The notes under the pieces: generated by a model
Databases searched by the model: none
What the model saw: the letters and a program-made list of their open reading frames with translations, nothing else
Told to the model about the DNA's origin: nothing
Assembly: GCA_036785375.1 (NCBI GenBank)
Contig: JAWMAR010000105.1
Location: 5,456,001-5,520,000 of the forward strand
Reading direction: 5' to 3'
From: Leucoraja ocellata
Taxonomy: Eukaryota
Length of the DNA stretch: 64,000 nt
Translations under genes and position numbers: made by a program
In this document: one piece after another, positions 5,189 to 64,000 of the stretch
How positions within the stretch are numbered: the first letter of the stretch is position 1
How the letters are laid out: every line of letters starts with the position of its first letter

Positions 5189-5391
5189 CAAGAAGAAGAT
5201 CTATTCCCCTCACATCAATAGTTTAGCCTCAGAAGGAAGTGAGCGATGGGAAGAGACAATGGTGCCCATCCAGGGCGATATGGATACACGTAATCATAGT
5301 CACCCTCTAATCTTGACCAAGTTGTTCAATGATTCAGAGAACTTGTTTTAGGAACTTGTTTAAGGCGTGAAAAATGCAGCAACCACACGGT

Positions 5392-5529
5392 CTTCTTCTT
5401 GCGTGTGGCGTGCACAGCCTAAAGTTGTAGGACAACTTGTTCTAATTGATCTTATTTGATTGTGCACGCCGGGTTGATTGCATTCTTCGAAACAAGGCGG
5501 ACCACGTGAAGGTTGCAATCTCCCACCCC
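5392..5529 (-). mobile_element. ~138-nt ribozyme-capped SINE-like retroelement, copy A
   Basis: Near-identical to 63864-64000. Has an (AAG)3 tail and flanking direct repeats aaccacacggt (5381-5391) and agccacagggt (5530-5540), 9/11 identical. Confidence 0.75.
5476..5529 (-). ncRNA. Second copy of the HDV-like ribozyme, with the catalytic C replaced by A
   Basis: Minus strand reads GGGGTGG GA GATTGCA ACC TTCACGT GGT CCGCCTT G TTTCGA AGAA TGCAATC. P3 is intact; J4/2 CGAA is AGAA at 5486. Confidence 0.75.
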
Positions 5530-5920
5530 AGCCACAGGGTGAGGAACAATCACGGTACGAGTTTCCAACCAAGTCAAGTCAAGTCACATTTATTTATATA
5601 GCACATTTAAAAAACAACTCTCGTTGGCCAAAGTGCTTTACATTTGTTATGAGAATAGCACAACAAAACAAACTACATACATATATACATGTAGCCCTCA
5701 CTCAGAGGACGTCAGGAAAGGCTGGTAAACCAGGCGAGGTTTACACCATAATATTTCGTGCATGAGTCAATGATACTGCCTGAGATTATGACACACCTCA
5801 GTGCTTCAGGATGCACACCCACACATGTCTCACGGCAATCGGCTGATGGAAAATGTCTGAAGAATCCTGTTTCAACAACGCTCCACTTGAGTACCATTTC
5901 TGAAGTGTTTCTCAACTACA

Positions 5921-6800: not shown

Positions 6801-8125
6801 ATATAACCATATAACAATTACAGCACAGAAACAGGCCATCTCGACCCTTCTAGTCCGTGCCGAACACATAATCTCTCCTAGTCCCATATACCTGCGCTCA
6901 GACCATAACCCTCCATGCCCTTCCCATCCATATAACTATCCAATTTATTTTTAAATGATAAAAACGAACCTGCCTCCACCACCTTCACTGGAAGCTCATT
7001 CCACACAGCTACCACTCTCTGAGTAAAGAGGTTCCCCCTCATGTTACCCCTAAACTTCAGTCCCTTAATTCTCATGTCATGTCCCCTTGTTTGAATCTTC
7101 CCTACTCTCAGTGGGAAAAGCTTTTCCACGTCAACTCTGTCTATCCCTCTCATCATTTTAAAAACCTCTATCAAGTCCCCCCTTAACCTTCTGCGCTCCA
7201 AAGAATAAAGCCCTAACTTGTTCAACCTTTCTCTGTAACTTAGTTGCTGAAACCCAGGCAACATTCTAGTAAATCTCCTCTGTACTCTCTCTATTTTGTT
7301 GACATCCTTCCTATAATTAGGCGACCAAAATTGTACACCATACTCCAGAATTGGCCTCACCAATGCCTTATACAATTTTAACATTACATCCCAACTTCTA
7401 TACTCAATGCTCTGATTTATAAAGGCCAGCACACCAAAAGCTTTCTTTACCACCCTATCTACATGAGATTCCACTTTCAGGGAACTGTGCACAGTTATTC
7501 CCAGATCCCTCTGTTCACCTACATTCTTCAATTCCCTACCATTTACCATGTACGTCCTATTTTGATTTGTCCTGCCAAGATGTAGCACCTCACACTTATC
7601 AGCATTAAACTCCATCTGCCATCTTTCAGCCCACTCTTCCAACTGGCATAAATCACTCTGTAGACTTTGGAAATCCTCTTCATTATCCACAACACCCCCT
7701 ATCTTGGTATCATCTGCATACTTACTAATCCAATTTACCACACCTTCATCCAGATCATTGATGTACATGACAAAGAACAAAGGACCCAACACAGATCCCT
7801 GAGGCACCCCACTAGACACCTGCCTCCAACCCGACAAACAGCCATCCACCATTACCCTCTGGCGTCTCCCATTCAGCCACTGTTGAATCCATCTTGCTAC
7901 TCCTGCATTTATACCCAACAGTTGAACCTTCTTAACCAACCTTCCATGAGGAACCTTGTCAAAGGCCTTACTAAAGTCCATATAGACAACATCCACTGCT
8001 TTACCCTCGTCAATCTCCCTAGTAACCTCTTCAAAAAATTCAAGAAGATTAGTCAAACATGACCTTCCAGGCACAAATCCATGTTGACTGTTCCTAATCA
8101 GACCCTGTTTATCCAGATGCTTATA
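6801..8125 (-). mobile_element. Young 5'-truncated CR1 LINE with an uninterrupted 398-aa RT fragment
   Basis: ORF 6878-8074: SCLTNL...DFSKAFDKVPH...SGVPQGSVLGP...KYADDTK...; same tail as copy 1. Confidence 0.95.
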
Positions 8126-8130
8126 TATCT

Positions 8131-54103: not shown

Positions 54104-54308
54104 TCACATGTCTGGTCTCCTATGCTGCACGTGTTTGTCAGTAGAATGCTGCAATAAAACCTGCGCTCTTTTACTAATTCTGTCCACCAGCTTCAAAAGG
54201 GAGACTGTCCCTTTACTCTGCCAATATTCCTGGTCTTCGTACAAGGAACGCAGGAGCATTTCGGACAGGCACTGTGACGAGATGATCTTCAGAGTTCTGG
54301 GAGGTATC
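54104..54308 (-). CDS. GASK1/FAM198-family gene, last coding exon
   Basis: Acceptor TTCTCTGGCCGGCTACAG|G at 54309/54308. Encodes IPPRTLKIISSQCLSEMLLRSLYEDQEYWQSKG..LLKLVDRISKRAQVLLQH, matching the FAM198 C-terminus (FP..AV.VL.S.CL..MLL.SL..D..FWESQGG...L......R...L...I). TGA at 54106-54104. Confidence 0.85.
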
Positions 54309-60091: not shown

Positions 60092-61132
60092 CTGGAAAAA
60101 ATAATTCAACAGTTTCATCTTCTGCAGCTCTGGGCTGTTGTCCCGGACACACACTTCGCTTCCCCCCTCTCGGCACTTCCTGAAGACACTGGGGAACTGG
60201 GCCATGTGGAAGGCATCCTGCTGGGGGACGGTGCCTTGAAGTATTGGCGTCCATGGCTCCCACAACACCATGGGCTTCGCTGAACCATCTACGTATTGTT
60301 GCGGCAGCAGGCGGGACCTCAACCGCCGTGCCACCACCGGCTGGCTGATGTTGAGGCCCAGGATCCGGTCCAGGTGAAATGCGGGGACTTCCCACAGGTC
60401 ACTCAACTCCTTCACTAATCCGCAGGCTCCCGCTCGACACTGCTCTCTGCTGCTCTCTACAGCGAGAGAATTATTAATACTCAGCAGCACACGGACCGTC
60501 TCCTCTCCCCGAGTGTGGTGCCCAGCCTTTAGGACAATTCCTCCAGCCAGGAGCTTCACCAGCTCTCGGTCCCTTTGACTGAACCAGGTGAGAGGTTTGC
60601 TTGACTCAGCTCCATGCAAGAAATCAGTGGAATGGAATCCATCAAACCAGAGGCAGTCCTTGCTAGTTTTTGTTGGTTTCTTTCTCTTCTTCCCATTGAG
60701 GTTTATCTGTGATGCTGCACCTTTGCTTCTTGCTGGTTTCTGACCAGTCCGCTTATCCAGACCATATTTTGCATCCTCTATGATTTCATTGTCCTCTCCC
60801 AACCATTTCACGCTGCCAATGCCTTTAGGCTTTCTAACAGGTCGTACATTCTTAATCTTGTGATGTAGGTTTGATTCAATGATCTGCACAGATTCCGCAA
60901 AGTGCCCTGACTTGTAGAGTCTCCGGTGCTGGAAACTGCTGTGACAGGCACTCCTGCCTCTCAGCCTGCTTGCTCTTGTATGAAGCTGCTCATCAGCCTG
61001 AATGTGCATCTTGTTGTCCATGGCCACTGCGTTGATATCCTGCGCTTGCATCGTACAAAGCAAAAGAGACACAGATCCAAGAAGGCAGGCACATAAAAAC
61101 GCTATTTTCCTGTGTCGTCTCACACCTCTCAT
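60092..61132 (-). CDS. GASK1/FAM198-family Golgi-associated kinase-like gene, large first coding exon
   Basis: The ORF from ATG 61132 (context ACAATG) encodes a basic N-terminus and signal anchor (RRHRKIAFLCACLLGSVSLLL), then FAM198-type motifs WFS..D..LLA.G, CGLVK...DLWEVPAFHLDRILGLNISQPVVARR, LLP..Y.DG.AKP...W.P and ..NYFFQ. The frame is cut by a CAG|GTAATC donor at 60092/60091. Closer to GASK1A than GASK1B in several motifs, but paralog identity is uncertain. Confidence 0.88.
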
Positions 61133-63365: not shown

Positions 63366-63863
63366 TTAGAATATTGTTTTCTGGTGGTGGAAGAAACTGT
63401 GAATGGGGAACTTTAGCTGCTTTCTCTTCCTTAGCTCTTACAAATGTCCATGCTCTTGAGGTCTATTTATCAAAGGATTATCTGCAGTTGGCAACAGATG
63501 TACCAGCAGGCTCTTCAAAGAACTTCAAAAGAACTGATTACTTCTCCAGATTAGTACAGCCATGTTAGTTGATTTTCTGGGTGACATACTAGGAGGAGGT
63601 TAACGGTTCATAAAACAAAACCGAACAGACTATTTTGAACCCTCTAACACCATGGATCCATGACCCATACAGTCCCACAGGGGCACAGAACAATGCAAGC
63701 CAGAATCACTTGTGTCAAATTCCATTTCATACCGTGCTACCTTGTGACTTGGCAAGTGTTATCCACCCACTAATTGAAGGCATGTTTACACTTGCAAACT
63801 TTTGGCATTCATTCCAAACTAATTCATCCAAATCAATTTTTTGTACAATTAAGTAGATATACA

Positions 63864-63917
63864 GGGGTGGGAGATTGCAACCTTCACGTGGCCCGCCCTG
63901 TTTCGACGAATGCAATC
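63864..63917 (+). ncRNA. Minimal HDV-like (CPEB3-type) self-cleaving ribozyme at the 5' end of a short repeat
   Basis: P1 GGGGUGG/CCGCCCU (first pair G.U), J1/2 GA, P2 GAUUGCA/UGCAAUC, P3 ACC/GGC (GGU in the other copy), L3 UUCACGU, G after P1', vestigial P4 UUUCGA, J4/2 CGAA with the catalytic-position C at 63907. Confidence 0.8.
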
Positions 63918-64000
63918 AACCCGGCGTGCACAATCAAATAAGATCAAATAGAACAAGTTGTCGTACAACTTTAGGCAGTGCACGCCATACGCAAGAACAA
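63864..64000 (+). mobile_element. Ribozyme-capped SINE-like retroelement, copy B (tail runs off the window end)
   Basis: Same 5' start GGGGTGGGAG and same body as copy A; ends CATACGCAAGAACAA. Confidence 0.75.

Follow-up and report, generated by a model that had tools for sequence, protein, structure and literature searches.

A short, abundant retroelement begins with a P4-less HDV-like ribozyme fold and has both ends in common with a LINE of likely Vingi type

What is the short repeat that begins at position 63864 of the window (the whole stretch of 64,000 nucleotides analysed here), and does its head act as a ribozyme? An earlier note had taken it for a non-autonomous retroelement capped by a self-cleaving ribozyme of the HDV/CPEB3 type, and our findings support that interpretation. 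The repeat has both ends in common with a LINE, target duplications, a tail, a precise 5′ end and an HDV-like fold, and the fold is conserved in related families. What the earlier note did not see was the origin of the element by deletion from a LINE of likely Vingi type, or the link of that LINE's relatives to the CPEB3 ribozyme. We consider it probable that this is a bipartite element of Vingi type whose head is a working ribozyme in the source copies.

Parsed with our own HDV descriptor, positions 63864-63917 of the plus strand give the HDV nested double pseudoknot without P4, made up as follows (citations here and below refer to those parts of the papers that were available to us).

63864-70/63893-99, plus strand: P1, 7 bp, with G.U as the first pair and one inner U.G
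J1/2, plus strand: 2 nt in the descriptor parse of the flagged copy
63873-79/63911-17, plus strand: P2, Watson-Crick at 7/7 pairs
63880-82/63890-92, plus strand: P3, with an A.C mismatch at the first pair (63880/63892) in the flagged copy
63883-89, plus strand: L3, 7 nt
C63885-G63900, plus strand: P1.1; G63900 and then U63901 follow P1′
63902-06, plus strand: loop of 5 nt in place of P4
63907-10, plus strand: J4/2, beginning with C63907
63907, plus strand: predicted catalytic C, the first base of J4/2, by analogy with HDV-like ribozymes (PMC10879173)
5′ of G63864, plus strand: predicted cut, from the fold model

All the HDV elements that the earlier note had named (P1, P2, P3, L3, the G after P1′ and J4/2) are at their places and in the right order, and its account of a reduced P4 and of an A.C mismatch in P3 of this copy agrees with the parse. 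It had also assigned L3 and J4/2 to the CPEB3 type; both are the same as in the Rfam RF00622 consensus, as is the G-U after P1′. By the descriptor, 17/17 pairs are intact at three other loci (L256, L262 and L274) and 16/17 in the flagged copy. The P1.1 pair, C22-G37 when counted from the first base of the element (G1), is kept in all seven aligned rows, and its second position is U.U, like the CPEB3 consensus in Rfam. The C at the catalytic position, followed by N-A-A, is present in the flagged copy and in 13 of 13 LINE heads, and is absent from the second copy in the window.

When a relaxed descriptor was run over both strands of the window, the flagged site scored 13 and two sites scored 8, one of them being the second copy in a wrong register; block-shuffled sequence (504,440 bases) held no match at the score of the flagged site. 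Rfam gave no match on the whole window at the gathering score, no ribozyme match around the second copy at E up to 10, and no call of the head on the whole loci L003, L256 and L262 at E up to 5. Over a stretch of 101 nt containing an intact copy, Rfam returned two matches in all, both to HDV-ribozyme families and both at the place and on the strand of the head; their scores, 21.7 bits (E 0.14; cut-off 50) and 14.4 bits (E 0.85; cut-off 44), are far too low for a call. Note that the Rfam HDV models used for scoring include P4, and the flagged head has none. Nested folding of the 54 nt, a method that cannot draw pseudoknots, gave no support (z 0.37 and 0.02). Double-sided covariation within the family was found at 0 of 35 pairs, and 439 of 500 shuffles reached the score, as is expected of copies that are 88-98% alike. 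Scores this far under the cut-offs, together with the SINE-like size, would suit a conventional Pol III SINE in which the likeness of the head to the fold is accidental. We regard this as very improbable, and it is largely refuted: the head is a LINE's own 5′ end and holds that LINE's likely start codon, relatives pass the CPEB3 model (see below for both), and the shuffled sequence gave zero descriptor matches. ARAGORN, too, found 0 tRNA genes at 4/4 loci, in line with the earlier report of no tRNA head.

The window holds one further full-length copy.

5392..5529, minus strand: second full-length copy, with the catalytic C changed to A

As the earlier note had it, this copy starts at the same G (5529); it is 94% identical to the flagged copy and lies 58,334 nt from it. 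Its target duplication is imperfect, of 11 bp (5530-5540 and 5381-5391). The claim that a consensus of the two copies is intact did not hold: the second copy is without the catalytic C (C44 to A) and also has C35 to T, so that the two window copies alone give no intact consensus. It is the family majority that is intact. A core defect is present in each of the window's two copies, and the flagged one, with its single P3 mismatch, is probably slower or dead as a ribozyme, judging from the fold model. All pairs and the C are kept in 6 of 25 copies, and only source copies need an intact ribozyme.

As to the surroundings, exons resembling FAM198 (GASK1) were seen on the minus strand at 60209-60604 and 54125-54307 of the window, and the flagged copy lies ~2.7 kb upstream of the large FAM198-like exon frame, on the opposite strand. 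We rejected the idea that the FAM198-like gene contains the second copy, with its C lost, in sense orientation, since the last exon to be matched is ~48 kb off. Both element copies and both FAM198-like exons recur in inverted order ~140-200 kb away at 98-99% identity (C105:5.31-5.38 Mb versus window 5.456-5.52 Mb); the inverted block is either a segmental duplication or an assembly duplicate. The window also contains a 416-codon RT frame of another LINE (6881-8128, minus strand) and at least 60 dispersed repeat families, several with tRNA-like heads when inspected by eye.

In the 3.44-Gb genome, a scored search returned 40 matches at 96-100% identity, and an exact 27-nt pattern of the ribozyme core had 5,977 matches (reversed control, 0); counted by core matches, the assembly holds at least 5,977 copies of the family. 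Since the core pattern was found in 10 of 25 distinct copies chosen by their 3′ half, the assembly total should be near 15,000, a rough figure that includes many near-identical duplicate loci. The family was also present in the sequencing runs of organisms A, B, C, D and G. The other repeats of the genome point to a cartilaginous fish as the host. Copies consist of a body of ~127-131 nt, a (GAA)n tail and a target duplication; with body and tail, the flagged element belongs to a length class of ~140 bases. A set of 120 loci was reduced to 80 distinct full-length copies by dropping duplicates and copies without a 5′ anchor or a 3′ end. Target duplications of 9-14 bp flank 57 of these 80 (11-12 bp in 36/57); they abut or overlap G1 in 46 of the 57, and 1-8 extra bases intervene in the other 11. 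A lone extra G at the junction, which is a mark of capped templates, was found at 0 of the 57 duplications. Long G runs stand ahead of G1 at two distinct loci (L040 and L055). The copies thus bear the marks of target-primed insertion: a target duplication, a simple tail and no small-RNA head.

The pile-up of 5′ ends at G1 foreseen in the earlier note was observed. Among 25 distinct copies chosen by the 3′ half alone, 15 begin at position 1 and 19 within 3 nt, and three are cut at 15, 19 and 70; among 54 copies chosen by positions 18-44, 48 begin at 1. The copies fall into three or more subfamilies, which are told apart by positions 8, 32, 45, 58, 61 and 71-76. The subfamily changes that fall within the head (8, 32 and 45) sit in J1/2, a wobble and the variable base of J4/2, and the fixed changes between the LINE and the subfamilies in the 54 nt (J1/2, P1 U-A to U.G and the second base of J4/2) are all tolerated. 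The LINE and all subfamilies retain L3, the G.U pair that opens P1, and the C and A-A of J4/2. The A.C variant of the flagged copy occurs in 238 of the 5,977 core matches, a level (4%) consistent with ordinary decay; the notion that it marks an active subfamily was dropped, given this frequency and its presence on several backgrounds. We also looked for the same head with a longer P4, and all eight pattern matches proved to be small insertions in the short element. Two arrangements of copies were seen in passing: a tandem array with a ~2-kb unit and one element copy per unit (L131 at C1:19.26-19.27 Mb, and C1:19.41-19.43 Mb), and a pair of ribozyme cores that face each other from opposite strands, head to head, with 65 bases between them (C147:283118-283209).

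Contigs aligned to the element have a common loose end that joins it at position 101. A 22-nt motif from this loose end had 210 exact matches in the genome, in 5′-truncated LINE copies, and 28 of 30 such loci run into the last ~38 nt of the element and its tail (2 of the 28 with small deletions). The earlier note had expected an autonomous LINE sharing both ends with a non-autonomous element, and a LINE of autonomous type was found: L130 is a full-length LINE that runs from the same G1 to the same tail, is flanked by a target duplication, and measures ~3.2 kb once two insertions are removed. Joints that skip ~4.1 kb of L130 were present in 4/4 sequencing runs. With both ends taken from the LINE and with these joints, the short element is the first ~79 nt of the LINE, a ~20-nt linker and the last ~38 nt of the LINE, that is, an internally deleted (bipartite) LINE, which is a known kind of element. 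Its parts in the flagged copy are as follows.

63851..63863, plus strand: upstream target-site duplication, 13 bp; the second half follows the tail just beyond 64000 (locus L001)
63864..63942, plus strand: segment from the 5′ end of the partner LINE, ~first 79 nt, from the LINE comparison and the joints
63910..63951, plus strand: 13-codon stub whose ATG overlaps J4/2-P2′, in frame with the partner APE-RT ORF
63943..63962, plus strand: linker, ~20 nt, without a match in the LINE; 63965-63971 is complementary to the 3′ part of this linker
63963..64000, plus strand: segment from the 3′ end of the partner LINE, ~38 nt, with the last codons and the start of the tail
63923..63986, plus strand: long stem, in which 63923-31 (LINE 5′ end) pairs with 63978-86 (LINE 3′ end)

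The 3′ segment holds the stop codon TAG (63972-74), a 3′ UTR of ~18 nt and the (GAA)n tail from ~63993, and the window ends inside the tail of the flagged copy. The earlier statement that the element has no ORF stands in so far as no long ORF is reported in it, and fails in so far as the 13-codon frame is a stub of the partner LINE's ORF, with the first 8 codons the same. The 3′ part of the linker and 63965-63971 form a 7-bp hairpin. Folding of 63918-64000 gave z -4.06, and three subfamilies gave z -3.96, -3.07 and -1.61; one change in the youngest subfamily makes the 5′-3′ stem perfect. In this fold model, protein recognition is the likely role of the stem. The two ends of L130 itself bear complementary segments of 8-9 nt, the ones that are paired in the short element, and end-to-end pairing in the full-length LINE RNA is possible on the same modelling.

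Pfam recognises APE and RT in fragments of L130. Among database proteins P0001 (1019 aa) is the closest; it is 71% identical over the RT piece and colinear with L130 from residue 29 to 1008, at 56-86%. Pfam APE and RT were found in the partner fragments and in 3/3 intact relatives, whereas Pfam RNase H, at E up to 1, was absent from the same three relatives and from the C-terminal fragment of the partner, and the LINE C-terminus carries a Cys-X-Cys...His...Cys motif. The LINE has a single ORF, with the frame open through the ribozyme. The ATG that overlaps J4/2-P2′ stands 28 residues before a conserved N-G-P-x-Q-G-Q, as does the first Met of P0001; this common spacing lends weak support to the view that the ATG is the LINE start codon, which we consider likely. 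The same head, with U5-A32 as a Watson-Crick pair and CUAA as J4/2, was found in 13/13 LINE heads examined. No intact partner ORF was found in the genome. Longer deletion derivatives occur as well (L095 and L150). Head and tail are present together at 14 of 90 LINE loci; 12 of 15 head-tail pairings are inverted, with the head ending at positions 1-18 (some loci being duplicates), as would be expected if the template RNA ends there. Such 5′ inversions, which set the outermost 5′ part of the LINE (to ~G1) in reverse against a truncated 3′ part and often involve the loss of a large segment, are frequent (L074, L081, L086, L097, L104, L124, L146, L164, L165 and L168) and were also seen in other families (L188/L191 and L357/L358).

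The partner is likely a LINE of Vingi type, on the basis of its architecture and because sister heads resemble the 5′ ends of labelled Vingi elements. Vingi LINEs have a compact single ORF of ~993 aa (PMC3708506) and no RNase H (PMC13708176), and P0001, with 1019 aa, APE and RT, agrees with this description. The labels returned by a protein-cluster look-up did not include Vingi, two files of the RTclass1 supplement did not contain the word, a search of solved structures matched only distant RTs, and viral contigs yielded no related LINEs. In a quick tree built without labelled references, the partner stands beside P0001 and apart from the branch with CPEB3-type heads. One related LINE, L230, stands out by a cysteine-rich extension at its N-terminus and by a very long branch in the tree, and perhaps belongs to another clade.

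Relatives of the partner are encoded at 80 metagenome loci, of which 13 have upstream sequence. The fold was parsed in 3 of the 13, cleanly in L201 and in damaged form, with other helix sequences, in L205 and L206 (in L188/L191 the head is inverted); the remaining 10 upstream regions gave no parse, and several of them looked truncated or decayed by eye. The head of L201 (2740-2823) passes the Rfam CPEB3 cut-off (55.6 versus 35 bits). On the genome, RF00622 placed 56 of 59 scored candidates over its cut-off, and 9 of the top 20 matches lead, in the same orientation, directly into an ORF related to P0001. Besides the metagenome LINE, three or more further repeat families of this genome (L341-L360) have heads over the CPEB3 cut-off, reaching 64.7 bits. 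The earlier note had looked to HDV/CPEB3 models and to covariation in P1, P2 and P3: the flagged head falls below the cut-offs and the pairs do not covary within the family, whereas the heads of related LINEs pass the CPEB3 model and carry compensatory changes relative to the family. With the register fixed by the descriptor, 8/17 pairs in L345 and 10/17 in L201 are changed on both sides with respect to subfamily A, and none is broken in either. What the related LINE families have in common is L3, the G after P1′ and C-N-A-A; their helices differ. In a quick unrooted tree of 23 rows, ribozyme-headed elements occupy three separate branches, which suggests that the ribozyme head is an old, clade-wide feature.

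The 5′ ends of Vingi-2_Gav, -4_Crp, -2_SPur and -1_BF are printed in the supplement of PMC5786205, and by eye these four Repbase sequences resemble the CPEB3 consensus, L201 and L345; the available part of that paper does not list Vingi as ribozyme-bearing. Judged by sequence likeness, the CPEB3 ribozyme probably arose through domestication of a Vingi 5′ end. We lean, with some reserve, towards a wider proposal: Vingi-type LINEs would begin clade-wide with HDV-like ribozymes, one lineage would have reduced the ribozyme to an active 54-nt form without P4 that overlaps the LINE start codon and heads well over 10,000 mini-elements in an animal genome, and the mammalian CPEB3 ribozyme, which is linked to memory, would be such a Vingi 5′ end, domesticated. 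The sister heads give the CPEB3 ribozyme a concrete, testable origin. No paper on a Vingi origin was found in the literature searched, and the available parts of two CPEB3 papers, PMC8233481 (in which 'retrotranspos' and 'origin' do not occur) and PMC10274809, do not address where the ribozyme came from.

We infer that a host transcript would read through a sense copy, that the head would fold and cut before G1 in a reaction dependent on Mg2+ and C63907, and that the freed unit-length RNA would be bound at its 3′ end by the LINE protein in trans, perhaps with help from the 5′-3′ stem. Target-primed reverse transcription from the tail would then produce a copy starting at G1 within an 11-12-bp duplication. 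Two indirect signs speak for a template that ends, uncapped, at G1: the lack of a lone extra G at the 57 junctions, and the inverted LINE heads that stop at positions 1-18. Among 6% of the reads of a poly(A) run of a related organism, 896/905 fit only in part, and 330 run upstream of G1 into unrelated flanks; no site was found where many molecules begin. A second poly(A) read set had no pile-up at G1 and left most of the LINE interior uncovered. In one set (X24), from a library whose strandedness is not given, the first mates divide between the strands at ~3:2. Because most copies are damaged and cleaved RNA may leave such libraries, poly(A) reads neither show nor exclude cleavage.

Could the head have been kept for something other than cutting? 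The first ~79 nt might mainly serve, like Pr77, as an internal Pol II promoter with its start site at G1, the ribozyme being a second function or a by-product. The element keeps ~25 nt past the ribozyme, which makes its 5′ segment about as long as Pr77; in L1Tc/NARTc a single stretch of 77 nt is promoter as well as ribozyme (PMC3383444); insertion throughout the genome favours a promoter of the element's own; and precise 5′ ends fit a promoter too. We nevertheless hold this to be unlikely: the 57 junctions are free of the lone G associated with a cap, the reads over the head derive from read-through RNA, and conservation across families tracks the ribozyme pairs and core, not a linear motif. 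Promoter and ribozyme functions are, moreover, compatible. (A bacterial promoter scan, which is irrelevant to this host, found nothing.) A fold inherited from a ribozyme ancestor that, having lost P4, no longer cuts and is kept as 5′ protection or as a site for the LINE protein would agree with the absence of ends in the RNA reads and with the full P4 of the sister families, and a ribozyme fold derived from R2 does protect the 5′ ends of engineered templates (PMC13708176). HDV-like ribozymes without P4 are, however, active in vitro (PMC10879173), and the conservation of the core in the LINE and in every subfamily described above speaks against loss of function, so that this alternative seems to us quite improbable. 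A bipartite element with a head that cuts in its source copies remains our preferred reading.

If the head cuts, few natural HDV-like ribozymes of animal genomes would be smaller; with its thousands of copies, sense insertions could sever host transcripts. Vingi would join the LINE clades headed by ribozymes, and, if the account is right, the element would offer a minimal template of ~120 nt (79 nt + 38 nt, with the 5′-3′ stem) for Vingi, a clade that is being developed for gene insertion (PMC13708176). In the literature searched, we found no precedent for a ribozyme in Vingi-type elements, for a form without P4 in an animal genome, or for sister LINEs whose heads exceed the CPEB3 cut-off and show compensatory helix changes. 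A search for 'Vingi' with 'ribozyme' found no paper whose available text reports a ribozyme in Vingi, the available portion of a 2026 preprint on ribozyme discovery has no mention of shark, skate or SINE, and no paper on this family was found, though Repbase, Dfam or patents may catalogue it.

Elements of the same kind are known from trypanosomes, where NARTc has ~77 nt at the start and ~30 nt at the end in common with its LINE, L1Tc, and begins with an HDV-like ribozyme that cuts before +1 (PMC3383444), and where RIME derives from ingi in the same bipartite manner (PMC4035085); both also have target duplications of 11-12 bp, and Ingi is the sister clade of Vingi (PMC13708176). The present element differs from them in size (131 versus 263 nt), in the absence of P4, in its animal genome and thousands of copies, and in a partner LINE without RNase H. 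The SIDEs of R2 in Drosophila likewise have a 5′ ribozyme joined to the 3′ end of the LINE by internal deletion and are moved in trans (PMC3414825), but they are rare, rDNA-specific and dependent on an RLE-type partner, whereas the element described here is dispersed, abundant and paired with an APE-type LINE. Vingi is one of four clades that make bipartite non-autonomous LINEs (PMC5786205), and the non-autonomous derivatives of Vingi-1_EE are comparable elements, as are SINE2-1_ACar and SINE2-1_AMi. Some SINEs use HDV-like ribozymes, according to a review (PMC6765202). The minimal HDV-like ribozymes (drz-Mtgn, theta) resemble the present head in having no P4, a short J1/2 and L4, and C as the first base of J4/2 (PMC10879173); nearly 99% of the hits for them were in phages and tied to tRNAs, whereas here the fold stands at the front of an animal retrotransposon and overlaps a likely start codon. 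Finally, CPEB3 (RF00622) has the same L3, G-U after P1′ and J4/2, and sister LINE heads pass its cut-off, whereas the flagged head has no RF00622 match, different helices and no P4, and CPEB3 is a single conserved intronic copy.
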